Assembly (NCBI GenBank): GCA_041737125.1
Contig: JBGSSJ010000014.1
Coordinates: 1,533 to 65,532, forward strand
Reading direction: 5' to 3'
Length of the DNA: 64,000 bases
DNA from: Minisyncoccia bacterium
Lineage (GTDB): Bacteria; Patescibacteriota; Minisyncoccia; Phycocordibacterales; UBA9973
The position numbers and the translations under genes were made by a program. Positions 1,444 through 40,273 of the stretch are shown here, in pieces (positions within the stretch are counted from its first letter, which is position 1; every line of letters begins with the position of its first letter). The notes under the pieces were generated by a model that was not told where the DNA came from, made no database searches, and saw only the letters and a list, made by a program, of their open reading frames with translations.

Positions 1444-1481
1444 ATCGTAATTCTTAATTAGTAATTCGTAATTATTTTCAA

Positions 1482-5237: not shown

Positions 5238-5855
5238 ATGAGTAATTTAGTATATAATAACAATATGAAACCTTATACATTTATGTTTTTTGGAATAGTG
5301 GGCTCAGGTAAAGGAACTCAGGTTAAACTTCTGCAAGATTATTTGAAAGAGAAAAGTTTAGCTGAAGATGTATTATCTACTTCTACGGGAGTAGAGTATC
5401 GTAAGCTTATAGATAGTGGTAACTATACAGGTCAAATTGTAAAAGTTAGCTTAGAGAAAGGCAACTTACAACCTAATTTCCTAACAATTAGTTTGTTTAC
5501 AAATATCCTAACTGCAAATATGCAAGAAAATACATCTTTTATCGCAGATGGTTTCCCTCGAACAATTATACAATCTGAAGCATTCGAAAGCGCTATGCAA
5601 TTCTATGGGAGAGATACCGTTCATGTCATTTATATTGAGCTTGGTAAAGAAGAGGCAACTAAACGTATGAAATTAAGAGCAAGAGCTGATGATACAGATG
5701 AAGGTATCTCTAAAAGATTTGATGAATATATAAACAACGTCATTCCAGCGATGAATTACTTTAAAGACAAAGCAGGCTACACTATACATACCATAAATGG
5801 TGATCAATCCATCGAAGATGTACAGAAGGATATAATTAAAGCTCTAAATTTATAA
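5238..5855 (+). CDS. adk: Adenylate kinase; the true start may be the internal Met near 5265
   Basis: P-loop GIVGSGKGTQ, NMP-binding DGFPRTIIQSEAF, LID/C-terminal ...DDTDEGISKRFDEY; operon position after secY. Confidence 0.8.
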   Translation: MSNLVYNNNMKPYTFMFFGIVGSGKGTQVKLLQDYLKEKSLAEDVLSTSTGVEYRKLIDSGNYTGQIVKVSLEKGNLQPNFLTISLFTNILTANMQENTSFIADGFPRTIIQSEAFESAMQFYGRDTVHVIYIELGKEEATKRMKLRARADDTDEGISKRFDEYINNVIPAMNYFKDKAGYTIHTINGDQSIEDVQKDIIKALNL

Positions 5856-6541
5856 TGCATAAAAACGAACACATTGTTATATCGCTAGGTGGATCTCTTG
5901 TTGTGCCTGATCAGATAGATACAGGCTTCCTAAAATCTTTTATTGAAACTATAAAAGAATATGTAAATAAAGGATTCTACTTTCTTATTATTACTGGTGG
6001 AGGAAGAACAGCTCGCAACTATACAATTGCAGCCAAGGAGATAAGTAATCCAACGAATGAAGACTTAGATTGGATAGGCATAGAGACCACTCGCATAAAT
6101 GCAGAGTTCGTACGTGTGTGCTTCGGTGATATCGCTTATTCAGAAATCATTTTGAACCCAGAATCAATCCCAGAGACTGATAAGCACGTCATACTTGGGG
6201 GTGGATGGAAGCCAGGCAACTCGAGCGACCTTGCTGCTGTTGTATGTGCCGAGACAGTAGGAGCGCATAAGATTATAAACCTTTCTAATATTGATTATGT
6301 ATACACAGCAGACCCTCGCCATAATAGTGATGCAGTGAAGATAGAGCATTCTTCTTGGAGTGATTTGCGGGCACTACTACCGAAAGAATGGGACCCAGGT
6401 CTAAACAGTCCTTTTGACCCAATAGCAGCCGAGAAGGCCGAATCCTTAGGCCTTGAAGTAGTAGTTATGAATGGTAAGAACATAGAGAATTTGAAGAACT
6501 ACTTAGATGGCAAAGAATTCGCAGGGACTGTTATTCGCTAA
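5855..6541 (+). CDS. pyrH: UMP kinase, archaeal-type short form
   Basis: 228 aa; ISLGGSLVVP, ITGGGRTARNY, IGIETTRINA, LGGGWKPGNSSDLAAVVCAE, NIDYVYTADPRHN track archaeal UMPK closely; the start overlaps the adk stop (TAATG). Confidence 0.75.
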   Translation: MHKNEHIVISLGGSLVVPDQIDTGFLKSFIETIKEYVNKGFYFLIITGGGRTARNYTIAAKEISNPTNEDLDWIGIETTRINAEFVRVCFGDIAYSEIILNPESIPETDKHVILGGGWKPGNSSDLAAVVCAETVGAHKIINLSNIDYVYTADPRHNSDAVKIEHSSWSDLRALLPKEWDPGLNSPFDPIAAEKAESLGLEVVVMNGKNIENLKNYLDGKEFAGTVIR

Positions 6542-6564: not shown

Positions 6565-8247
6565 ATGTCCGAGAATCGTATATGTCAGAATTGTAAGAAC
6601 GAATTCAGTATTGAGGCTGATGACTTTTCTTTCTATGAAAAGATGCAAGTTCCACCACCGACATTCTGTTCACAGTGTCGTATGGTTCGTAGGTTAGTTT
6701 TCCGTAATGAAAGAAGATTATTTAAAGTAAATAATGCTTTTACTGGGGAGAAGATATTCTCTCTATATCCAGAGCAGTCAGGAATGAAGGTCGTCACACA
6801 GGATGAGTGGTTCGGTGATTCTTGGGACCCGAAAGAATATGCTTGTGATTACGATTTCTCAGTAAATTGCTTCCAACAGCTTTTTGATCTGGACAAAAAG
6901 GTTCCTATTTATGGGCTTAATGTAAGGGGGATGATTCAGAGTGATTACTGTGCTAATGCTTCATATCTGAAAGATTGCTACTTACTGTTCAACTCAAATA
7001 CTTCCGAGAACTGTTTATATGGTAATTCTGTCGATACTTCTCGAGATTGTGTAGACAACTCACATATAGCAAAATCTGAGCGTTGCTATGAATCATTCTG
7101 GTTAAATAATTGTTATCAATGTTATTACACTATTATGTGTGTGGACTCAAGGAATATGTGGTTTTCTAGAGACTGTCTTGATTGCAGTAATTGCTTTGGT
7201 TGTACAAATCTAAGGAAAGCCTCGTATTGTATTTTCAACCAGCAATATACAAAAGAAGAATATTTAAATGAATTAAATTTAAATACTAGAAGTGGTATAG
7301 AAGAAGCAAATAAGGTCTGTATGGACTTTTGGAAGACACAACCTAATAAATTACACCAGGGTCTAATGAATACTAATTCTAATGGTGCTTATGTTTCTAA
7401 TTGCAAGAATGTCCTAGATTCATATTTAGTACGTGATAGTGAAGATATGCGCTACTGCCAATATATGCTTGTTGGCGGTAATAAGGACTGCATGGATGCC
7501 TGCGTTTGGGGACAGAAAACTGAACTCTCATACGAGACAGTGACTTGTGGTGAGAACTCTTATAATCTCAAATTCTGTTTTGACTGTTGGCCAAACGTTC
7601 GAGATTGTGAATATTCTCTACATCTGAAATCATCATCGGACTGTTTTGCTTGCGTTGGTTTAAAGAATGCACAGTACTGTATTTTGAATAAACAGTATAC
7701 GAAAGATGAATATTTTGAAATGGTAGAGAAGATAAAGAAACATATGGATGAAATGCCTTATATAGATAAAAAAGGAAGAGTATATAAATATGGGGAATTC
7801 TTTCCAATTGAATTATCTGCTTTTGGTTACAACAATACAGCAGCAAAAGACCAAGCACCGATTAATAAAGAAGAAGTGGAAGAAAATAATTATCCATGGA
7901 TAGAAGTTGATCGTGGTAACTATGATATAACACTTGATGGTAATGATATTCCAGATAATATAAATGATGTAAAGGATAGTATCTTAAATGAAGTTATAAG
8001 ATGTACGAATTGTGGATATGCACACCGTATCGTTCCCGGTGAATTGAATTTCTTAAGGAAAGAATCCTTACCTGTCCCTACTATTTGTTATGAATGCCGT
8101 CATTCTAGAAGGATTGAGAACAGGTTGAGAAATAATCTATATAATAGGAATTGTTCAAAATGCGATATTGCTATAAGTACACCTTTTCCACCAGAGAATG
8201 GAGATATAGTTTATTGTGAAAAGTGTTATCAACAAGAGGTGATATAA
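6565..8247 (+). CDS. Cys-rich repeat protein, paralog 1 of 4, with N- and C-terminal zinc-ribbon 'bookends'
   Basis: 560 aa. N-terminus CQNCKNEFSIEADDFSFYEKMQVPPPTFCSQCRMVRRL; two internal Cys-repeat modules each ending C.GCxxLxxAxYCI.N.QYTK.EY; C-terminus CTNCGY...ELNFLRKESLPVPTICYECRHSRR...VYCEKCYQQEVI. No signal peptide or TM helix. Confidence 0.6.
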   Translation: MSENRICQNCKNEFSIEADDFSFYEKMQVPPPTFCSQCRMVRRLVFRNERRLFKVNNAFTGEKIFSLYPEQSGMKVVTQDEWFGDSWDPKEYACDYDFSVNCFQQLFDLDKKVPIYGLNVRGMIQSDYCANASYLKDCYLLFNSNTSENCLYGNSVDTSRDCVDNSHIAKSERCYESFWLNNCYQCYYTIMCVDSRNMWFSRDCLDCSNCFGCTNLRKASYCIFNQQYTKEEYLNELNLNTRSGIEEANKVCMDFWKTQPNKLHQGLMNTNSNGAYVSNCKNVLDSYLVRDSEDMRYCQYMLVGGNKDCMDACVWGQKTELSYETVTCGENSYNLKFCFDCWPNVRDCEYSLHLKSSSDCFACVGLKNAQYCILNKQYTKDEYFEMVEKIKKHMDEMPYIDKKGRVYKYGEFFPIELSAFGYNNTAAKDQAPINKEEVEENNYPWIEVDRGNYDITLDGNDIPDNINDVKDSILNEVIRCTNCGYAHRIVPGELNFLRKESLPVPTICYECRHSRRIENRLRNNLYNRNCSKCDIAISTPFPPENGDIVYCEKCYQQEVI

Positions 8248-8254
8248 TAAAAGC

Positions 8255-9955
8255 ATGGAGACAAGAAACTGCCAGAACTGCAAAAATAAGTTCAAGATCG
8301 AACCAGACGATTTTTCTTTCTATAATAAGATAAAGGTACCCCCACCTACTTTCTGTCCACAATGTAGACTTATTCGAAGAATGAGTCATACAAACGAAAG
8401 AGTTCTATATAGGCGTAAATGTGATCTGACAGGTGAAAATATCCTTAGTATGTTTGGAGTAGATGCCGAATTCCCAGTATATAAATCTGAAGCTTGGTAT
8501 TCTGATGATTGGGATCCATATAAATATGGAGTAGATTATGATTTTTCTAAGTCATTTTTTGAGCAATTCAAAGAATTATTACAACGAGTACCTAGAATGG
8601 CATTAGTTAAACAAGGTCTTTCTAAGAATAGTGAATATACACACAGAGTCCATGATATGAAAGACTCTCATATGGTTTTTCGTATGTCTGGTAGTTTAGA
8701 TTCATCTTATTGTTATGTAGGTAGAAATATAACGAATTGCGTTGATTGTCTTAGTATCTGGGATAGTGAGTTGTGTTATGAATGTATAGATTGCAATAAT
8801 TGTTACAAGGTCCGATATTCTCAAGAAAGTCATGATTGCAGGGATTCTTTTTTCTTGTATGCCTGCAGAAATTGTTCAAATTGTATCGGTTGTGTAAACT
8901 TGATTAATCAAACACATTGCATTTTTAATGTTAAATACACAAAAGAGGAATACGAGAAAAAATTAAAAGAGCTTAATTTGGAAACTTATTCTGGACTAAA
9001 AGAATTTAAAGATAATTTTGAACAATTTAGAAAAAAGTTTCCATATCGTTCAAATCACTCTTTGAAGTCCAGTAATTATTCTGGTAATTGGATCGTCAGT
9101 TGTCAAAATGTTAAAGAATCATTTGGTTGTATTAATGTAAAAGATGGCAAATATTTATTATGGATTTTTAATGCACAAGATTGCATGGATCATTTCCAGT
9201 GGGGTAATGGAGCCGAGCTTATATACGAATCAGAAAACGTAGGAATTAATGTTTCAAGGGTAAAGTTTTCTTCTCAATGTTGGATGGGTGCTCATGATTT
9301 GGAATACTGTGATTCTTGCCCTGGGGCGGGGAATTGTTTTGGTTGCATAGGATTAAAGAAGGGTGAATACTCTATTTTAAATAAAAAGTATAGTAAAGAA
9401 GAATACGAAGAATTGCTACCTAAAATAAAGCAGCACATGATCGATGTACCATATGTAGATATTAAAGGATGTCTTTATTCATATGGTGAAAATTTCCCTT
9501 TTGAAATATCACCGTTTGCTTATAATGAAACAGCTGCTATCGACTTCTTCCCGATAACAAAAGAGCAGGCTTTAGAGAGTGGTTATAAATGGAAAGATAG
9601 GGAAAAAACTCAGTATAATATAACTAAAGATTTTACTGATCTCCCTGAAACAATAGCAGAAGTGGGCGATGATATAAAAAATGAAATAATATCTTGCGAG
9701 GAATCAGATGAAGAATATTCACCTGGAGCTTTTAATATTACAGACCAAGAATTAGCTTTTTATAGAAAGATGAATTTACCGCTACCACGAGCTTCTTTCT
9801 CCGTCAGACATATGCGTCGTTTCAAACAACGTCCTCCTCTAAAATTAATAAACCGACAATGTTTGAGATGTGGTATAGATGTTGAGACAATTTATACTGA
9901 AGAATTTGCCCCCATTCTTTATTGTGAATCTTGCTATCAACAAGAAGTGATATAA
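8255..9955 (+). CDS. Cys-rich repeat protein, paralog 2 of 4
   Basis: 566 aa; same architecture (CQNCKNKFKIEPDDFSFYNKIKVPPPTFCPQCR..., CFGCIGLKKGEYSILNKKYSKEEYE, ...YCESCYQQEVI); 7-nt gap from paralog 1. Confidence 0.6.
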   Translation: METRNCQNCKNKFKIEPDDFSFYNKIKVPPPTFCPQCRLIRRMSHTNERVLYRRKCDLTGENILSMFGVDAEFPVYKSEAWYSDDWDPYKYGVDYDFSKSFFEQFKELLQRVPRMALVKQGLSKNSEYTHRVHDMKDSHMVFRMSGSLDSSYCYVGRNITNCVDCLSIWDSELCYECIDCNNCYKVRYSQESHDCRDSFFLYACRNCSNCIGCVNLINQTHCIFNVKYTKEEYEKKLKELNLETYSGLKEFKDNFEQFRKKFPYRSNHSLKSSNYSGNWIVSCQNVKESFGCINVKDGKYLLWIFNAQDCMDHFQWGNGAELIYESENVGINVSRVKFSSQCWMGAHDLEYCDSCPGAGNCFGCIGLKKGEYSILNKKYSKEEYEELLPKIKQHMIDVPYVDIKGCLYSYGENFPFEISPFAYNETAAIDFFPITKEQALESGYKWKDREKTQYNITKDFTDLPETIAEVGDDIKNEIISCEESDEEYSPGAFNITDQELAFYRKMNLPLPRASFSVRHMRRFKQRPPLKLINRQCLRCGIDVETIYTEEFAPILYCESCYQQEVI

Positions 9956-9987
9956 AACAATTAAAAATTACTAATTACTAATTACGA

Positions 9988-11667
9988 ATGGAACACAAAG
10001 AAGAAAATAAAATATGTCAAAATTGTAAAAACTCATTCACAATAGAACCAGATGACTTTTCTTTCTATGAGAAAGTAAAAGTTCCACCACCTACATTCTG
10101 CCCAGAGTGTCGTAGGCAGAGAAGGCTGACATGGAGAACTGAGTTTAATTTTTATAACCGTAAATGTGATATGTGCGAGAGGGACATAATCTCTTCTTAT
10201 CCTGCTCGTTCTACACTTAAGGTGTATTGTAATAAATGTTGGTGGAGTGACAATTGGGATCCAAAATCCTATGAGAGAGATATAGACTGGGGGAAAAGCT
10301 TCTTTGATCAATTGCAGGAATTACGAGAATCTGTACCAGTACTCTCACTAATAAATGACAATAATGTAGGAAGTATAAACTGTGAGTACACTCAGAACTT
10401 TGTCCTAAGTAAGAATTGCTATATGTGTATGGTGGCTTGGCATTGGGATGACTGTATGTATTCTTGTTATGGAGCAGATGCTAGAAATTGTGTAGATTGT
10501 ATGGGGTTATTTGGCTCATGCGAGAATTGCTATGAGAGTATTTTTATTGAAAAGTGTTATGGATGTAAGTTTGTCTACCAAAGTACTTCTATGGTAAATT
10601 CTAGTTTCTGTTTTGATTGTAGGAATTGTGATGATTGTTTTATGTGCACAGGACTTAGGAATAAAAAGTTCTATTTTAAAAACAAAAAATATTCTGAAGA
10701 AGAATATAAAGAGATAGTTAGTAATTATGCTATTCATACTTATACAGGACAACAAAAGGCTATAGAAGAATTTCGTAAATTTAAATTGGAAAATATCCAC
10801 CCATATGCATTCTTGAAAAATTGTACATCTTGTACTGGTGGTTATCTTTTCAACTCAAAAAATTCTCAAAATAGTTATAATGCAAGGAACTTAGAAGACT
10901 GTTATTGTGTGGACACCGGCGATACAATGAAAGAATGTCGCGACATTTCTGTGGGTGGGGAAGCGGAGTTGTGCTATGAAGGTGTGACGCCTGATAATTC
11001 TCATGATACTGCATTTACTAATTATACCTGGAAGAGTAGTAGTTGCTATTATTGTGATTTCTGCCAATCTTGTAATGATTGTTTTGGTTGTGTATCTTTG
11101 AAAAAAGGAGAATACTGTATTTTGAACAAACAGTACTCAAAGGCTGAATATTTAGAAATAAAAAATAAATTAATTGAGCATATGAAATCAAATGGAGAGT
11201 GGGGTGAATTTTTTAGAGCCCGAGATTCTTTCTTTGGTTATAATGAAACTATAGCGAACTTCCACTTTCCACTATCAAAGGAACAAGCACTCCGGGAAGG
11301 TTATAAATGGCAAGATAGTTTACAAATTACAACCGGGAAAGAAACATTGGATATAAGTGCCATAGAGGATGATATTAATAATATAAGCGATTCCATAATT
11401 AATGAGACTATCGCTTGCACTTCTTGCTCAAGGAACTACCGTATTACTGAAAATGAGCTTCTTTTTTATCGCAAAATGAATATACCTTTACCCAGGAATT
11501 GCTTTTTCTGTAGGTTAAATAATAGATTTAATTTCCGTAATCCTTCCAAGCTCTGGCACCGCTCATGCATGAAAGAAGGTTGTAATAATGAATTCGAGAC
11601 AAGCTACGCACCAGAAAGGCCGGAGATAGTTTATTGCGAGAAATGTTATCAACAAGAAGTGATATAA
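9988..11667 (+). CDS. Cys-rich repeat protein, paralog 3 of 4
   Basis: 559 aa; MEHKEENKICQNCKNSFTIEPDDFSFYEKVKVPPPTFCPECRRQRR...; ends ...VYCEKCYQQEVI. Confidence 0.6.
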   Translation: MEHKEENKICQNCKNSFTIEPDDFSFYEKVKVPPPTFCPECRRQRRLTWRTEFNFYNRKCDMCERDIISSYPARSTLKVYCNKCWWSDNWDPKSYERDIDWGKSFFDQLQELRESVPVLSLINDNNVGSINCEYTQNFVLSKNCYMCMVAWHWDDCMYSCYGADARNCVDCMGLFGSCENCYESIFIEKCYGCKFVYQSTSMVNSSFCFDCRNCDDCFMCTGLRNKKFYFKNKKYSEEEYKEIVSNYAIHTYTGQQKAIEEFRKFKLENIHPYAFLKNCTSCTGGYLFNSKNSQNSYNARNLEDCYCVDTGDTMKECRDISVGGEAELCYEGVTPDNSHDTAFTNYTWKSSSCYYCDFCQSCNDCFGCVSLKKGEYCILNKQYSKAEYLEIKNKLIEHMKSNGEWGEFFRARDSFFGYNETIANFHFPLSKEQALREGYKWQDSLQITTGKETLDISAIEDDINNISDSIINETIACTSCSRNYRITENELLFYRKMNIPLPRNCFFCRLNNRFNFRNPSKLWHRSCMKEGCNNEFETSYAPERPEIVYCEKCYQQEVI

Positions 11668-11713
11668 AACAATTAAAAATTACTAATTACTAATTACTAA
11701 TTACTAATTACGA

Positions 11714-13414
11714 ATGGAACACAAAGAAGAAAATAAAATATGTCAAAATTGTAAAAACTCATTCACAATAGAACCAGATGACTTTTCTTTCTATGAGAAG
11801 ATAAAAGTTCCACCGCCTACTTTTTGCCCGGAGTGTAGGAGGCATAGAAGATTCGGCTGGAGGAATTATGTGAATTACTACAAACGAACTTGTGGACTTA
11901 GTGGTGAGTCTCTTATATCACTATACAGTGAAGATTCTGGCATTACCGTCTACTCTCCGAAAGCTTGGCATTCGGATAAATGGGACGCACTTGATTACGG
12001 ACAGGAGTACGATTTCTCTAAATCATTTTTTGAACAATATACACGCTTACTCTATGCTGTGCCCAAGCCAGCTATGGATACTGACGATGGATTACTAAGC
12101 ACGAATTGTATGTATACCAATGACTTTGCTATGGGGAAAGACTGTTACCTGGTGGTGAAAGCTTGGAAGCTTGAGAATGTAATGTATTCATTCTATGTGG
12201 TGAACAGTCGCGACTTGGTAGATGTGCATACTAGCTTTGGTAAGGATGAAGGTAACTATGAGACGGTTAACACAGAGCATTGTTACCAATGTAAATATGT
12301 ATATGATTCTAGGAGTTGCTCGGATTCCAGCTTCTGTTTTGACTGTAGGAATTGTGACCACACCTTTATGTGCACAGGGCTTCGTGGGAAGTCATACTAT
12401 TTTAAGAATGAGGAAGTAGGTAAAGAGAAGTATGAAGAGATTATGAAAGAATATGCACTTCATACTTACTTGGGAGTAGAGAAAGCTAAGAAAGAATTCG
12501 AACCGATGATGTTTAATCATCCCAGGAAAGCAGTTCGAATACTAAATTCTGTTGATTGTTCTGGTGACCTATTAACTAATTGTCATAATTGCAAGAATTG
12601 TTTTCTAATGCTAGATAGTGAGAATTGTCGATATGATAATTATGCTGATGGAGCTCGCGATTCGTATGATACCGATGCCGGAGGAGGATCTGAGCTTGCT
12701 TATGAGTCTGACCTGCCTGCATTCTCTGCGAATATTGTTGGTAGTTATTCTGCTTGGTATTGCCAGGACGTAAGCTATGTGAGTCATATGTATAGGAGTA
12801 AAGACTGCTTCGGGTGTGATGGATTGAAGAATGCACAATACTCTATACTCAATAAGCAATATACGAAAGAAGAATATTTCAATATGCTAGAGAAGATAAA
12901 GAAGCACATGGACGACATGCCTTATATAGATAAGATGGGGAATATGTATAAGTACGGTGACTATTTACCATTGGAATTATCATACTTCCCTTACAAAGAC
13001 ACAGAAGCGATGGAGCTATATCCGCTTGATGATAATGCCTTACTTACGAGGGGATATAAAGAGAAGAAAATAAATGAGAACTCACAAATAATGGAGACAA
13101 TAAAAGCAGAAGACTTGCCAGACTCTATTGATGATGTGTCTGATGATATATTAAGTGAGATAATTCTATCAAAAGGAGGAGAGAAGAAATATAAAATAAC
13201 AGAGCAAGAATTAAATTTCTATCGGAAGTATAGAATTCCACTACCTCGTGAATCTTTTTTCGAAAGGCATGTCCGTAGGCATAAAATGGCAAGTTCATTT
13301 AGGTTATATGAACGAGTAAGTGATAAGTCAGGTGAAGTTGTTCAAAGTTCTTATCCAATAGAAGCAAAGGAAACAGTGTGGAGTGTAGAGGAATATAGAA
13401 AAGAGTTTGAATAG
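11714..13414 (+). CDS. Cys-rich repeat protein, paralog 4 of 4, lacking the terminal CxxC ribbon
   Basis: 566 aa; the first ~42 residues and ~50 nt upstream are near-identical to paralog 3, then diverge; the C-terminus keeps ELNFYRKYRIPLPRESFFERHVRRHK but has no final CEKCYQQEVI. Confidence 0.6.
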   Translation: MEHKEENKICQNCKNSFTIEPDDFSFYEKIKVPPPTFCPECRRHRRFGWRNYVNYYKRTCGLSGESLISLYSEDSGITVYSPKAWHSDKWDALDYGQEYDFSKSFFEQYTRLLYAVPKPAMDTDDGLLSTNCMYTNDFAMGKDCYLVVKAWKLENVMYSFYVVNSRDLVDVHTSFGKDEGNYETVNTEHCYQCKYVYDSRSCSDSSFCFDCRNCDHTFMCTGLRGKSYYFKNEEVGKEKYEEIMKEYALHTYLGVEKAKKEFEPMMFNHPRKAVRILNSVDCSGDLLTNCHNCKNCFLMLDSENCRYDNYADGARDSYDTDAGGGSELAYESDLPAFSANIVGSYSAWYCQDVSYVSHMYRSKDCFGCDGLKNAQYSILNKQYTKEEYFNMLEKIKKHMDDMPYIDKMGNMYKYGDYLPLELSYFPYKDTEAMELYPLDDNALLTRGYKEKKINENSQIMETIKAEDLPDSIDDVSDDILSEIILSKGGEKKYKITEQELNFYRKYRIPLPRESFFERHVRRHKMASSFRLYERVSDKSGEVVQSSYPIEAKETVWSVEEYRKEFE

Positions 13415-13458: not shown

Positions 13459-14226
13459 ATGGCTGTGATTATAAAAACTAAAGAAGAGATAGATATACTT
13501 CGCGTTGGGGGCAAGAGATTGGCCTCTATTTTGGCGAAAGTGGCTAAAAAGGTTGCCCCAGGGGTGACTACCAAAGAGCTTGATCTATATGCCTACACAC
13601 TCATAAAAGAAATGGGGGATGAGCCAGCATTCCTAAACTATAAGCCAGAGGGCCAATCGAAGGCTTTCCCGGCCTCTCTTTGTACATCTGTAAATAATGA
13701 AATAGTTCATGGCATACCAGGCGATGAGAAAGTTCTAAAAGAGGGGGATATTATAGCCATAGACTTGGGGCTCAAGCATAAAGGACTTTTTACAGATCAT
13801 GCTATCACTGTGCCTGTCGGCAAAGTGCCAAAGGCATCACAAGTACTGATGCAAAAGACTAAAGAAGCGCTCTGTGTAGGAATAGAACAAGCAAAAGCGG
13901 GTAATACAGTTGGGGACATAGGCTATGCTATAGAGAAATTCGTCGGTGGGAAGTATGGCATAGTCCGCGAACTTTCAGGTCATGGAGTCGGGAAGAAGAT
14001 TCACGAAGATCCATATATTCCTAACTATGGAAAGCGCGGCAAAGGCCAGAAGTTGATCCCGGGTATGGTTGTGGCTATTGAACCAATGCTTAATATCGGT
14101 AAAGCCTCTATCTTAACTACGTCTGATGGATATACGATAAAGACAGCAGATGGTACGCGCTCAGCGCACTTTGAGCACACTGTTCTCATAACAGAAGGCG
14201 AACCAGAGATTCTAACTACAATATAA
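13459..14226 (+). CDS. map: Methionine aminopeptidase type I
   Basis: 255 aa; pita-bread metal ligands and motifs (VHGIPGD, IIAIDLG, HFEHTVLITE); canonical partner of adk in this cluster. Confidence 0.9.
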   Translation: MAVIIKTKEEIDILRVGGKRLASILAKVAKKVAPGVTTKELDLYAYTLIKEMGDEPAFLNYKPEGQSKAFPASLCTSVNNEIVHGIPGDEKVLKEGDIIAIDLGLKHKGLFTDHAITVPVGKVPKASQVLMQKTKEALCVGIEQAKAGNTVGDIGYAIEKFVGGKYGIVRELSGHGVGKKIHEDPYIPNYGKRGKGQKLIPGMVVAIEPMLNIGKASILTTSDGYTIKTADGTRSAHFEHTVLITEGEPEILTTI

Positions 14227-14229
14227 GAT

Positions 14230-14400
14230 TGCTTCAAATTATATAATAAAAAATGGCACGCAAATTTTGAAGCTTAAAATTTAGAAAAGCGAGTTACTGT
14301 AAATTTTATTCGTTTATCCCTACTCAGACTGCGTCTGAGCGCGCGCCCACACCTACTCATAAAATTTACAATAACTCGCCTTTCTTTGCATTCTGTATGA
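14230..14400. repeat. MITE-like compound inverted-repeat element
   Basis: Hairpin gcttcaaatt...aattttgaagc at 14230-14272; near-perfect ~24-bp terminal inverted repeat gaaaagcgagttactgtaaattttat (14284-14311) / ataaaatttacaataactcgcctttc (14358-14385) enclosing the inner hairpin ctcagac-tgc-gtctgag. Confidence 0.4.
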
Positions 14401-14413
14401 TATAATAATTGGA

Positions 14414-17140
14414 ATGGAAGGATTAAATCTAAACAATGCACAGAAATTTAAAACTCCCCAAGAAGAGCTTGAGTTTCTTCGTGCGCATATAGCAGAGAAA
14501 GAGAGAGCCCTCATAGACCAAGGGCAGGAATATTCACGTGAGAACTTGGCTCATGATGTTATTTCTGAATACAAGAAATACGAACCTGAAGATGTCATGC
14601 ACAAAAGTGTGACCATACCACAGCCTGATGTAGAGAATTTCGTTCTACGGCTCCATCCAGAAACTCACGATAATAAAATGGAAGAAATGCTCGGTATATT
14701 ACTTTCGAAAGGCATATCAAGCGCACTATCTATAGTAGGCAAAATGCACAACCCGCACCTAGACGATGATTTCCATAGATTTCTAGTTCAATACCTATAC
14801 AGCACTCACAAAATTCCAGGACTCAAAGAGGGTACTCCACTATTCAAATCTCTCGATATGAAATTATTCGAGATAACACTTCCTGATCCTACAGATGACG
14901 AGAAAGATAAGAAAGGTTTAAAGGAATTACTTTCCGCCATGGAGCAATTCTATGCTGGTATGCATTCTGTCGGTGAAGGCAGACAGAATTTTAATCGTAA
15001 TCACTTCACTCTCGAGATCGCTCTGTCTGAGAACAGTGATCATTTCATATTCTACACAGCAGTACCGTCAAATAAAGCAGATTTATTCGAGAAGCAATTA
15101 CTGGGAGTTCACCCCAATGCCAAGATAATGGAAGCCCCAGATGATTACAATATTTTCGCTGATGGTTCTGCTATTGCTGGCTCATATGCCAAGCTTGCTC
15201 ATAATGAAGTCTTCCCGATCAAGACATACGATACCATAGAGCATGATCCTCTAAATATAATATTGAATGTCTTCACGAAGTTAAAAAAGTCTGGTGAGGG
15301 TGCTTCTGTGCAGTTCACAATTTGTCCGGAAGATGATGACATAATAAAAAAGTTCCATATAATGCTTGGTGATGTGAAGGAAGGCATGTCTGTAAAAACG
15401 GCTGGAAGCCTCACTCGTCAATTCGGTAAAGAAATAGAAAATATAGCAGGAGAATTATTCTTCGGTTCTTCAAAGACTAAAGAGAAGAAAGTAAATGATG
15501 AAGCCGTAGAGAAGATAACAGAGAAGATAAAGAGCACTATCATGGCTTGTAATATACGCATTGTCGCATCTGCTGAAGATTCTAATCGTGCCAAGCAAAT
15601 CCTCTCTGATCTTGAATCATCCTTCAATCAGTTCACTGAAGCCAATAGGAATGGATTTGATTTTAAGCATGTATCAGGGGCAGATTTAGATAAACTTATA
15701 CATGAGTTCTCCTACCGCACTTTCTCACAAGATTACTCCATGCCACTCAATCTCAAAGAGCTTGCTACTATATTCCACTTCCCACATGGCATAGGTTCAT
15801 CTCCACAGCTTAAGCAAGCTCGTGCTGGTATTGCTCCTGCACCTATGGAAATGGGGGTAGAAGGGACCATACTCGGTGTTAATAGTTATCGAGGTAAAGA
15901 TACAGAGATACATTTTGCTCCGGAGGATCGTATGAGACATATGTATGTTATCGGTCAGACAGGTACAGGTAAGACTACAATTATGAAGAACATGATAGCT
16001 CAAGACATAAAGGCAGGCCACGGCGTATGCTATATCGACCCACACGGCACAGATATCCAAGACATACTAAGTTACATTCCGAAAGAGCGTATTGATGATG
16101 TGATTTATTTCGATCCTGCTTATACTCCTCGCCCTATGGGGCTCAACATGCTTGAATATGATCCGAAGTATCCAGAACAGAAGACTTTCGTTGTGAATGA
16201 GCTTATGAACATATTCAACAAACTTTTCGACATGAAGACCTCTGGAGGTCCGATGTTCGAACAGTATTTCAAGAACTCAGCATTCCTGGTGATGGAGCAC
16301 CCTGAGACTGGGTCCACTTTGCTTGAGATTGGACGCGTGCTTGCCGATAAAGAATTCCGTGACATGAAGCTCTCTCACTGTAAGAACCCCATTATTACTC
16401 AATTCTGGAAGAGTGCAGAGCAGACAACAGGTGATCAATCTATTGCGAACTTCGTGCCATATATTACTTCCAAGTTCGACAACTTCATCTCGAACGATAT
16501 CATGCGCCCGGTTGTGCTCCAGCAGAATTCTGTTTTCAATTTCAGAGAGATTATGGATAATAAGAAGATATTACTTGTGAACCTTGCCAAAGGTCGCCTT
16601 GGTGATATAAATGCGAACCTCATAGGTCTCTTAATAGTGAACAAGATTCAGATGGCTGCACTTTCTCGTGTGGATATGTATGGCAAGAAGATGGAAGACT
16701 TCTTCCTCTATATAGACGAATTCCAGAATGTGACCACTGACTCTATCGAGTCCATACTATCCGAGGCACGTAAGTACCGCCTGTCACTCACTGTAGCCCA
16801 CCAGTACATATCACAGCTTGAAGATAATATAAAGAATGCAGTATTTGGTAACGTCGGCTCTATGGCAGTGTTCCGTGTCGGTGCTGAAGATGCGCAATTC
16901 CTTGAAAGTAAATACAAACCAGTTTTCAGTGCAGCAGACATTATGAAGATTGATAACTATAATGCTTATGTGTCTATGCTTATCAAAGGCCAGCCTACGA
17001 AACCTTTCAATATGGCAACACTACGACCACCAACAGGAAATATGGAAATAGTAGAGAAGATTAAAGAGCTTTCATATCTGAAGTTCGGCCGCGAGCGCTC
17101 CGAAGTAGAAGAAGAAATAATGGATAAATATAGGCAGTAA
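14414..17140 (+). CDS. FtsK/HerA/VirD4-superfamily P-loop ATPase (TraG/VirD4- or DUF87-like) with a ~480-aa N-terminal domain of unknown function
   Basis: 908 aa; Walker A GQTGTGKTT, Walker B FLYIDEFQNV, C-terminal ARKYRLSLTVAHQYISQL (the R-K...Q motif of coupling-protein/HerA ATPases); no TM segments. Confidence 0.65.
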   Translation: MEGLNLNNAQKFKTPQEELEFLRAHIAEKERALIDQGQEYSRENLAHDVISEYKKYEPEDVMHKSVTIPQPDVENFVLRLHPETHDNKMEEMLGILLSKGISSALSIVGKMHNPHLDDDFHRFLVQYLYSTHKIPGLKEGTPLFKSLDMKLFEITLPDPTDDEKDKKGLKELLSAMEQFYAGMHSVGEGRQNFNRNHFTLEIALSENSDHFIFYTAVPSNKADLFEKQLLGVHPNAKIMEAPDDYNIFADGSAIAGSYAKLAHNEVFPIKTYDTIEHDPLNIILNVFTKLKKSGEGASVQFTICPEDDDIIKKFHIMLGDVKEGMSVKTAGSLTRQFGKEIENIAGELFFGSSKTKEKKVNDEAVEKITEKIKSTIMACNIRIVASAEDSNRAKQILSDLESSFNQFTEANRNGFDFKHVSGADLDKLIHEFSYRTFSQDYSMPLNLKELATIFHFPHGIGSSPQLKQARAGIAPAPMEMGVEGTILGVNSYRGKDTEIHFAPEDRMRHMYVIGQTGTGKTTIMKNMIAQDIKAGHGVCYIDPHGTDIQDILSYIPKERIDDVIYFDPAYTPRPMGLNMLEYDPKYPEQKTFVVNELMNIFNKLFDMKTSGGPMFEQYFKNSAFLVMEHPETGSTLLEIGRVLADKEFRDMKLSHCKNPIITQFWKSAEQTTGDQSIANFVPYITSKFDNFISNDIMRPVVLQQNSVFNFREIMDNKKILLVNLAKGRLGDINANLIGLLIVNKIQMAALSRVDMYGKKMEDFFLYIDEFQNVTTDSIESILSEARKYRLSLTVAHQYISQLEDNIKNAVFGNVGSMAVFRVGAEDAQFLESKYKPVFSAADIMKIDNYNAYVSMLIKGQPTKPFNMATLRPPTGNMEIVEKIKELSYLKFGRERSEVEEEIMDKYRQ

Positions 17141-25651: not shown

Positions 25652-26044
25652 GGGACTGACGGGCTTCGACGAAGGATCGTCCTCATAAATATGCATGTAA
25701 AGTACCCAGGAATCTTTTAAAACTTCTTGGAAAAGACTAAGTGCAAACAAAGTCGCTTCAATTAAATCACCTTACTCTTTTGGGTTTGGTAATTTAGTTC
25801 CTGCTGTCGCCTAAACGGTCACACAGGTGTCTCTCTTATCGACATCCGATACATAGGGGAGGCATAATTTATCGGGTTACGAATCTATCACTGCTTGAGT
25901 TAGATTCCGACAATGAAGAGCTCGGTGTTCACTTTTTTTGTTTGTTCTCTAGAGTGAATATTTAAACCAAATGAACATACTACACATGTAGATTTATTTA
26001 TGAACATCTTTTGCATCTGGGTTCAACTCCCAGCAGTTCCACCA
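25652..26044 (+). ncRNA. ssrA: tmRNA (SsrA)
   Basis: 5' GGGACUG pairs with 3' CAGUUCC including a G3-U wobble (Ala identity); GGGTTCAACTCCC T-arm, discriminator A, CCA at 26042-26044; tag ORF GCA...TAA (25743-25814) encodes ANKVASIKSPYSFGFGNLVPAVA*; adjacent to smpB. Confidence 0.85.
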
Positions 26045-28974: not shown

Positions 28975-29048
28975 CCACCCTTAGCTCAGTTGGTTAGAGC
29001 ACAGAGCTTATACCTCTGGGGTCCTTGGTTCGAATCCAAGAGGGTGGA
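28975..29048 (+). tRNA. tRNA-Ile with anticodon UAU
   Basis: Cloverleaf CCACCCT/AGGGTGG acceptor, GCTC-AGTTGGTTA-GAGC D-arm (Ile-like), anticodon arm CAGAG-CTTATAC-CTCTG giving 5'-TAT-3', TTCGAAT T-loop, discriminator A; no CCA encoded. Confidence 0.8.
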
Positions 29049-29121
29049 CATTAAAAAGCTTTATAATCTGTTAAAACATTAATTGATTGATTATCAATTA
29101 ATAATGTAATAATATATAGCT

Positions 29122-39872: not shown

Positions 39873-39888
39873 ATTTATACTATTATTG

Positions 39889-39974
39889 CGGAGGCGGTGA
39901 GATTCGAACTCACGGTCCTTTAAGGGGACGACGGTTTAGTAAACCGTTGATTTAAACCACTCATCCACGCCTCC
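39889..39974 (-). tRNA. Type II (long variable arm) Ser-like tRNA with apparent anticodon ACU
   Basis: Minus-strand sense GGAGGCG-TG-GAT...ATC-A-ACGGT-TTACTAA-ACCGT-[17-nt variable arm CGTCCCCTTAAAGGACC]-GTGAG-TTCGAAT-CTCAC-CGCCTCC-G; perfect 7-bp acceptor, G73, U33/A37 in place; the loop reads 5'-ACT-3'. Confidence 0.7.
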
Positions 39975-40097: not shown

Positions 40098-40186
40098 GGA
40101 GACGTGTCAGAGTGGTCTAACGTACCTCTTTGCTAAAGAGGCAGGGGCTTCAAACCCCCTCGCGAGTTCGAATCTCGCCGTCTCCG
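40098..40186 (+). tRNA. tRNA-Ser (anticodon GCU)
   Basis: GGAGACG acceptor, anticodon arm CCTCT-TTGCTAA-AGAGG, long variable arm CAGGGGCTTCAAACCCCCTC, TTCGAAT T-loop, discriminator G. Confidence 0.85.
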
Positions 40187-40273
40187 CATTAAATCGGATT
40201 AAAATTATCTACCGCTACTCTTTATTCTTGTATCAGTATATAATATAGATATTAGAAATTAATTATATTTTTT

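Follow-up and report, generated by a model that had tools for sequence, protein, structure and literature searches.

The described modules closest to the proteins considered here are three models of short zinc fingers, zf_Tbcl (PF13451), zf_Tbcl_2 (PF23477), and TIGR04272, each of which covers an isolated finger of ~37–45 amino acids (aa) with no assigned function. The closest described neighbors are ATPases of the conjugation type, for which a recent preprint counted 5,713 VirD4-like homologs in 2,918 genomes of the Candidate Phyla Radiation (CPR), 148 of them near virB4, and left the role open. Both kinds of module occur in a 64,000-nucleotide (nt) stretch of DNA from a Minisyncoccia bacterium (assembly GCA_041737125.1, contig JBGSSJ010000014.1, positions 1,533 to 65,532), hereafter the window, where a tandem array of four paralogous, cysteine-rich proteins (6565–13414) lies between a pyrH-like kinase gene and map. 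The terminal fingers of these paralogs are of the zf_Tbcl, zf_Tbcl_2, and TIGR04272 types but, unlike those models, two pairs of fingers (A–B) bracket ~430 aa that match no model, and the fingers account for less than 30% of the protein. The array belongs to a very large, ancient, and previously undescribed family with no Pfam or NCBIfam model on its core, and the most reasonable reading of the sequences is that the family is a zinc-finger-rich, non-enzymatic scaffold.

The four genes are co-directional on the plus strand and occupy 6565..8247 (paralog 1, 560 aa), 8255..9955 (paralog 2, 566 aa), 9988..11667 (paralog 3, 559 aa), and 11714..13414 (paralog 4, 566 aa). They lie downstream of the ribosomal-protein operon with which the window starts (rplE, rpsN, rpsH, rplF, rplR, rpsE, rplO, secY, adk, and the pyrH-like amino-acid kinase), with the kinase (AA_kinase, 5855–6541) and map (13459–14226) as immediate flanks, and the successive spacers from the kinase through the paralogs to map measure 23, 7, 32, 46, and 44 nt. 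The open reading frames (ORFs), their lengths, the short gaps between them (given as 7–46 nt), and the position of the array between pyrH and map had all been described correctly in an initial annotation of the window made from the letters alone.

The size of the family became apparent from three kinds of searches. Paralog 1 retrieved more than 7,220 relatives among clusters at 90% identity, the best 120 of which were full-length, 56–75% identical, and without exception labeled hypothetical; the few with organism names came from Paceibacterota, Nomurabacteria, Minisyncoccia, or Patescibacteria. A profile search of 1.84 billion representatives at 50% identity gave 4,898 matches at E ≤ 1e-3 and 2,113 at E ≤ 1e-30, with nearly all of the best 150 being 550–600 aa in length. 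In a scan of one genome per species, at least 590 stretches matched, and the 80 listed were all from metagenome-assembled genomes (MAGs) of Patescibacteria. Among members seen, then, the family is restricted to Paceibacteria-type Patescibacteria. A scan of 2.9 million viral contigs returned one marginal fragment, an exact cluster look-up of the window proteins returned no names or accessions, and a literature search that included the Pfam and TIGRFAM accessions found no description of the family, with two of the items consulted (PMC5424206 and bioRxiv 335083) having no bearing on it. Genomes of Paceibacteria are well below 1 Mb (808 kb for the only chromosome that is complete in the set of loci compared here) and, despite this small size, some carry many copies of the ~1.7-kb gene. 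Roughly 5,000 clusters at 50% identity without a model, name, or paper constitute a substantial blind spot in a bacterial radiation that ranks among the largest, and at a minimum two new domain models are warranted, covering the A–B finger pair and the solenoid module together with its cap.

Existing models touch only the ends of the protein, in keeping with the initial annotation, which had recognized no characterized family. A Pfam and NCBIfam scan of the four paralogs and 42 family members gave marginal finger matches only, with no confident match to a well-characterized family and the core uncovered; precomputed Pfam labels in the family searches, from a release recent enough to contain PF26449 and PF27659, were likewise blank on the core. 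The last finger of paralog 1 scored 28.0 bits against PF23477 (Pfam cutoff of 27) and 27.6 bits against TIGR04272 (cutoff of 36), paralogs 2–4 matched neither model, and six of the 42 family members gave a match. The CxxC-x17-CxxC spacing of this finger type is exact in paralogs 1 and 2, appears as a CxxxxC variant in paralog 3, and has lost all four cysteines in paralog 4. As for PF13451, none of the window paralogs matched at E ≤ 1, and six of the 42 relatives did, the best at E = 3.3e-6.

The paralogs align with one another end to end at 39–43% identity and share one architecture, in which all of the motifs quoted by the initial annotation are present: an N-terminal CQNCKN..F.IEPDDFSFY.K..VPPPTFC..CR..RR, the motif CFGC..L....YCI.NKQY.K.EY that closes each of two internal modules, and a C-terminal ELNF.RK..LPLP..C..CR..RR...VYCEKCYQQEVI. 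The duplication of terminal ribbons and internal modules, also proposed earlier, was borne out by profile–profile comparison (hhalign) and a conservation map, both made from an alignment of 208 family members. Residues 1–48 are homologous to the penultimate finger at 475–522 (99.3% probability), residues 51–85 to the last finger at 523–560 (98.3%), and the module at 130–237 to that at 275–390 (99.9%, E = 7e-35). These internal duplications define a layout of finger A–finger B, a helical linker, solenoid 1, solenoid 2, a helix with an acidic linker, and a second finger A–finger B.

In paralog 1, taken as an example, the first finger A (aa 1–48; 6565..6708, plus strand, as are all features of this gene) has a treble-clef-type arrangement (C7, C10...C35, C38), is net basic, and has cysteines conserved in 98–99% of the 208 members. 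The putative β-solenoid module 1 (aa 125–237; 6937..7275) consists of a Cys/Ser ladder with a period of ~12 aa and ends in C204xxC207xxC210xxC213 and YCIFNQQYTKEEY, while the putative module 2 (aa 262–390; 7348..7734) ends in CFACVGLKNAQYCILNKQYTKDEY. The second finger A (aa 475–522; 7987..8130; C480, C483...C508, C511) is strongly basic, and the final finger B (aa 523–560; 8131..8244), with C530xxC533-x17-C551xxC554 of the zf_Tbcl_2 or CxxC-x17-CxxC type, has cysteines that are 97–98% conserved. The number of intact fingers differs among paralogs 1 to 4, at three, two, four, and one, respectively: paralog 1 has a degenerate N-terminal B finger, paralog 2 retains the N-terminal A and C-terminal B fingers and lacks three of four cysteines in the penultimate one, paralog 3 possesses all four, including a second N-terminal ribbon (CDMC...CNKC), and paralog 4 retains only the N-terminal A finger. 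An N-terminal B finger occurs in ~40–65% of family members and is intact in the window in paralog 3 only. The earlier remark that paralog 4 lacks its final CxxC was accurate but incomplete, as all eight cysteines of both C-terminal fingers are gone, with the ELNFYRK..IPLPR scaffold retained.

Two numbers in the initial annotation required correction. Cysteine counts are 39, 32, 45, and 22 in paralogs 1–4, or 4–8% of residues (family median of 34), instead of ~45–55 per protein, and the repeat period is ~12 aa instead of ~20, with the autocorrelation of Cys, Ser, and Thr occupancy at lag 12 reaching 0.66 in module 1. Across the family, finger cysteines are 87–99% conserved and those of the solenoids 30–78%, with the exception of the cap clusters (C207, 90%; C210, 97%; C213, 87%; C363, 97%; and C372, 85%). 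Residues conserved at 98% or more are nearly all Cys, Pro, Gly, Asn, and aromatics, with a few Arg, Asp, Gln, and Glu, and neither a conserved His nor an obvious catalytic constellation occurs in the conservation map. An invariant set of this kind suggests a binding or structural role, as opposed to an enzymatic one. The A fingers have mean net charges of +2.2 (N-terminal) and +4.6 (second), and the solenoids and linker are acidic. As stated earlier, none of the paralogs has a signal peptide, a transmembrane (TM) segment, or the CxxxCxxC motif of radical SAM proteins and Fe–S clusters, although a CxxCxxCxxC motif sits at the module-1 cap; no hydrophobic segment was found, the Kyte–Doolittle maximum being 0.6–1.1 compared to 2.9 for SecY, and the products are predicted to be soluble.

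An AlphaFold2 model of paralog 1, calculated from 42 sequences, had a mean local confidence (pLDDT) of 83, exceeding 88 over the fingers and linkers, and a global score (pTM) of 0.84. In this model, the repeat modules appear as narrow, Cys/Ser-laddered β-solenoids of a generic kind, and the whole protein seems to have no structural relative: Foldseek returned nothing from the PDB at E ≤ 0.001, no significant PDB match came from sequence searches with profiles of the whole family, finger A, or finger B (the best E-values were 0.03, for a LIM second finger, and 1.4, for bL32), and nothing beyond generic β-solenoids emerged from either approach. Described narrow, Cys- or Thr-laddered solenoids used for comparison were curli CsgA (8c50), ryegrass IRI (3ult), and the budworm and Tenebrio antifreeze proteins (1m8n and 1ezg). 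They are secreted, share 2–13% sequence identity with the paralogs and no Pfam match, and the Tenebrio protein (TmAFP) is disulfide-bonded, whereas the family has no signal peptide, places a zinc finger first, and carries one variable cysteine per repeat. The paralogs display neither the secreted, 12-aa TCTxSxxCxxAx coils with two disulfide-bonded cysteines per coil of TmAFP, nor the profile match and uncapped, stackable solenoid of CsgA and bactofilins, nor the hexapeptide-repeat profile and trimeric acyltransferase active site of left-handed β-helix transferases (PF00132). An antifreeze or ice-binding role was considered and rejected, as it is favored only by a generic likeness of solenoid fold and the protein has no signal peptide.

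Tandem, co-directional arrays of diverged paralogs are the normal state of the family. Among 83 non-redundant related loci, each anchored on a family gene (loci are designated here by L numbers), 35 contain one full-length copy, 19 two, ten three, nine four, and ten five to eight. A single locus of 21.7 kb contains 11 matches, partial ones included, and one MAG possesses at least 12 on two contigs. In 124 pairs of adjacent copies, median identity was 40%, and none reached 60%. Each of the window paralogs has a relative elsewhere that is closer than any within the array, at 63%, 62%, 51%, and 48% identity for paralogs 1 to 4, respectively (L086 and L083 at 61–62% for paralog 2, compared to 39–41% within the array, L078 for paralog 3, and L079 for paralog 4). 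The paralog-1 subfamily is the most conserved, with 18 members in 18 loci, i.e., one copy per locus, and in the only genome pair comparable for both proteins it appears to evolve more slowly than TruB (63% identity between paralog 1 and the L001 ortholog versus 36% for TruB). Low identity between adjacent copies, closer relatives elsewhere, and a one-per-locus subfamily together indicate that the arrays are old, differentiated, and constrained paralogs and not recent amplifications. Recent tandem duplication is rejected on the first two of these observations. Horizontal acquisition is likewise rejected, since the GC content of the array (0.33–0.38, in a window of low GC content, ~37%) and its codon usage are inside the window's normal range.

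One sign of what looks like ongoing exchange among paralogs is a tract present twice in the array, on the plus strand. The first copy (9933..10073) runs from the last eight codons of paralog 2 through a spacer with the (ATTACTA)n repeat into paralog 3, of which it takes in the initial 29 codons, and the second (11645..11799) comprises the end of paralog 3, a spacer with two extra heptamer copies, and the start of paralog 4. Over ~140 nt, a 14-nt indel of heptamer units is the only difference between the copies (100% identity otherwise), in spite of an overall identity of 41% between paralogs 3 and 4, and the tract therefore looks like the product of recent gene conversion or recombination. The heptamer repeats themselves lie directly before the starts of paralog 3 (9960–9987) and paralog 4 (11672–11713), with the latter tract being longer by 14 nt, or two units, and a related, inverted copy occurs between rpsN and rpsH (1447–1472, minus strand). 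With the repeats this near to the start codons, variation in heptamer copy number could tune expression.

The interval between pyrH and map is a variable insertion site, and the family itself is native and lineage-wide. This was evident from seven genomes, the window included, that share a secY...map-ATPase-ndk...beta-CASP-SLOG-rplT-infC block. Most of the relatives are 65–69% identical to the window in SecY and 58–66% in Map, L092 is lower (60% and 55%), and for L022 the comparison was confined to Map (66%) and a portion of the ATPase (50%). Family genes upstream of map number four in the window, one in L039, at least four in L022, and none in L089–L092, so that the site is occupied in three of the seven. 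Genes flanking the lone L039 copy are 53–72% identical to their window counterparts, compared to only 46% between that copy and paralog 1; the site is thus variably occupied, with its content turning over. The comparison of synteny and copy number suggested earlier therefore reveals a varying interval in place of one fixed four-gene array. The original idea of an accessory insertion holds with respect to the variable site and fails with respect to foreign origin or recent amplification, given the native composition and the age of the paralogs. Elsewhere, arrays occur between truB and rpoB (L001), in a purine operon (L004), and in the grpE-dnaK-dnaJ region. Array-free adk/pyrH–map intervals have other contents, namely a DUF559 endonuclease-like gene, a HicAB toxin–antitoxin pair, and fragments of cytidylate kinase (L089, 7861–9058; L091, 6545–7613), and the region may be a hot spot for insertions in general in this lineage.

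By gene clustering, the commonest neighbors of the family are soluble P-loop ATPases (TrwB_AAD_bind, T4SS-DNA_transf, TraG-D_C, or DUF87), found in 37 of 84 loci, followed by DnaJ in 13, CysRS in ten, DnaK in nine, an AI-2E transporter in nine, CutA1 in eight, and a PaaX-like protein in eight. The 55 ATPase genes located in 36 of the 83 loci are co-directional with the nearest family gene in all but two cases (53), and the distance to that gene is no more than 1.5 kb for 49 and no more than 100 nt for 26. A recurrent order is an ATPase of ~700 aa, one to three family genes, and an ATPase of ~490 aa. The larger ATPase itself carries finger B (PF23477/TIGR04272) and a disordered tail ending in EVPEDVLRKILE. 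In such ATPases (L012, 2854–4986; L021, 7768–9657; L025, 7798–9984; L028, 7562–9664), the tail that follows the finger is long, Pro/Lys/Ser-rich, and of low complexity, and its strongly conserved end, (K)E(V/I)PEDVL(R/K)K(I/V)LE, resembles a docking motif. Loci anchored on the finger-bearing ATPase exhibit the block infA-rpsM...rpsI-grpE-[family 0–2]-PaaX-like-dnaK-ATPase(zf)-[family 0–2]-ATPase(~490)-dnaJ, with family genes in two of four. Written out for L093–L096 (and also L007, L012, L016, L021, L023, L025, L028, and L073), the order is infA-rpsM-rpsK-rpsD-rpoA-rplQ-rplM-rpsI-grpE-...-dnaK-ATPase(~700)-ATPase(~490)-dnaJ, which places two conjugation-type ATPases inside the hsp70 operon of Paceibacteria.

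The window has an ATPase of a third architecture, the soluble, 908-aa P-loop protein at 14414..17140 (plus strand), in which an N-terminal DUF8128 has a fold like that of the VirB4 N-domain and the C-terminal part is of the HerA/TrwB/TraG type. Its presence nearby, together with that of an HD-domain protein, had been recognized by the initial annotation. A homolog of this DUF8128 type directly abuts a family gene in another context (L068, 41-nt gap), and in L080 one is separated by 2.4 kb from an array of three genes. A functional link between the 908-aa ATPase and the array is possible. In L089–L092, an ATPase of this type adjoins map and no family gene occurs within 10 kb, so adjacency in the window is not evidence of a link. 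The notion of a functional cassette made up of the array and this ATPase was dropped after look-ups anchored on the ATPase had returned map adjacency without the family. In comparison to TrwB, VirD4, and TraD, on the one hand, and TrwK and VirB4, on the other, the neighboring ATPases score far below every NCBIfam cutoff and, unlike the described type IV coupling proteins (T4CPs) and VirB4, have no TM anchors, no VirB3/6/8-like genes in the gene lists of the inspected ATPase loci, and a setting in hsp70 and ribosomal operons; none of the known T4CP partners resembles the family.

The explanation that we favor, with a probability of about 0.45, combines these observations. In it, the paralogs would be modular, probably hetero-oligomerizing, zinc-stabilized scaffold or adaptor subunits, the basic A fingers (CR..RR) would provide the contact to nucleic acid or to an acidic partner, and the subunits would act together with soluble VirD4/VirB4-type P-loop ATPases, one of which bears the same B finger, in a typical packing of dnaK-ATPase(zf)-[family ×1–3]-ATPase(~490 aa)-dnaJ. 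The family would then be lineage-specific, core cell machinery and not a defense or effector island. The scaffold element agrees with the zinc-rich scaffold suggested by the initial annotation, which was essentially right in its observations apart from the numerical slips and partly supported in its interpretation. The ATPase link is drawn because these proteins are the commonest neighbors, are packed tightly and co-directionally with family genes, recur in several contexts, and share finger B. Suggestive as it is, the linkage is facultative, and it and the ligand account for the bulk of the uncertainty.

Several points weigh against this explanation. Two of the four loci anchored on the finger-bearing ATPase (L095 and L096) and all four anchored on the VirB4-like ATPase (L089–L092) have no family gene within 10 kb, and many family genes are far from any ATPase, including those between truB and rpoB (L001) and in the purine operon (L004). 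As loci anchored on the family share ancestry, 36 of 83 overstates the number of independent observations, and some proximity by chance has to be allowed for in small genomes that carry several arrays each. In the AlphaFold2 model, pLDDT is only 60–75 across the solenoid modules. No homolog has a known function, so the mechanism is inferred, and the binding of nucleic acid is predicted purely from finger type and charge. A bolder extension of the favored explanation, which we consider rather unlikely as it stands, is that the family and soluble, "orphan" VirD4/VirB4-like ATPases form an unrecognized cytoplasmic machine across Paceibacteria, embedded in hsp70 and ribosomal super-operons, with conjugation-derived motors loading, remodeling, or moving heteromeric zinc-finger/β-solenoid subunits along nucleic acid. 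If true, this would explain most of the ~5,700 CPR homologs of T4CPs that are not linked to virB4, and the packing of family genes with soluble, conjugation-type ATPases is in any case a testable lead on the role of these homologs.

The same facts of gene order bear on the other explanations. That the proteins are autonomous binding or regulatory scaffolds, attached to nucleic acid or protein independently of any ATPase, with adjacency being merely the inherited order of compact, co-directional genomes, is unlikely, if a little less so than the remaining alternatives; family genes without a nearby ATPase, both ATPase types without family genes, and a window ATPase that stays beside map regardless of the array are what such autonomy predicts, but the ATPase family is about three times commoner as a neighbor than any other and usually directly abuts, ATPases of three architectures are repeatedly found beside family genes, in different contexts, and the B finger is shared. 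The recurrence of DnaJ, DnaK, CutA1, and CysRS as neighbors, repeated placement inside the grpE-dnaK-...-dnaJ block, and a cysteine content of 4–8% could instead suggest holdases, co-chaperones, or metal buffers with Cys/Zn centers that are co-expressed with the hsp70 system. We regard a proteostasis, redox, or metal role of this kind as doubtful, since the modest conservation of solenoid cysteines and the retention of the fold by paralog 4 with 22 cysteines fit ladder positions better than metal sites, the recurrent neighbors could represent one conserved synteny block, and the window array is in a ribosomal/secY operon. The zinc-bearing chaperones DnaJ (CXXCXGXG) and Hsp33 have Cys4-type zinc sites in common with the family, which occurs in the grpE-dnaK-dnaJ block in many genomes, but no sequence or profile similarity, the likeness being one of context.

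Multi-copy, variable arrays beside ATPases of the type IV secretion family, and the VirB4-like fold of the window ATPase, also raise the improbable case that the proteins are cargo that VirD4/VirB4-type ATPases recruit, as substrates or effectors, for delivery to host cells through the CPR type IV secretion apparatus. Such a role is hard to reconcile with ATPases that have neither TM anchors nor VirB3/6/8-like neighbors, with subfamilies whose age and strong conservation are not typical of effectors, with folded zinc fingers at both termini, the conserved C-terminal one having a net charge of −1.1 where an unstructured, often basic signal would be expected of type IV substrates, and with the fact that most CPR homologs of T4CPs are not near virB4. 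About equally improbable is a self-assembling β-solenoid polymer, in which the paralogs would be co-polymer subunits of a bactofilin- or curli-like cytoplasmic filament or lattice: there is no Pfam bactofilin or curlin match, and each solenoid is capped by a conserved cysteine cluster and a helix and flanked by globular fingers, capping that usually blocks stacking. The proposal that has fared worst, and that we judge very improbable, is the initial annotation's diversifying defense or effector family, here taken as an anti-phage or diversifying immunity island in a core operon. Variable occupancy and copy number, the gene-conversion tract joining paralogs 3 and 4, and weak, generic HerA and mad8 matches of the adjacent ATPase in PADLOC are in its favor, yet the four paralogs have zero matches in PADLOC-DB 2.0 at E ≤ 0.01 and lack both catalytic invariants and any effector domain, be it a nuclease, a protease, or another kind; their composition is native, the family is essentially absent from viral contigs, no adjacent pair is above 60% identity, leaving no trace of recent diversification, and the paralog-1 subfamily appears slower than TruB in the one genome pair compared.

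Other features of the window lie outside the array. The spacer between map and the ATPase contains a 27-nt inverted repeat (14283–14385) that is 93% complementary, has a 49-nt loop, and occurs once in the window. This is probably what the initial annotation had called a MITE-like element; its uniqueness in the window gives no sign of a mobile element, and it may be a transcript hairpin. In the ribosomal operon, a 149-aa ORF (671–1120), the translation of which has several hydrophobic stretches, lies between rplE and rpsN (S14, 1258–1443), and in the syntenic relatives L089 and L090 S14 directly follows rplE without it. A tmRNA is located at 25652–26044, and ARAGORN identified a tRNA-Ile with the anticodon UAU (28975–29049), as well as a tRNA-Ser with the unusual anticodon ACU (39888–39974, minus strand) that adjoins a normal tRNA-Ser(GCU) at 40098–40187.

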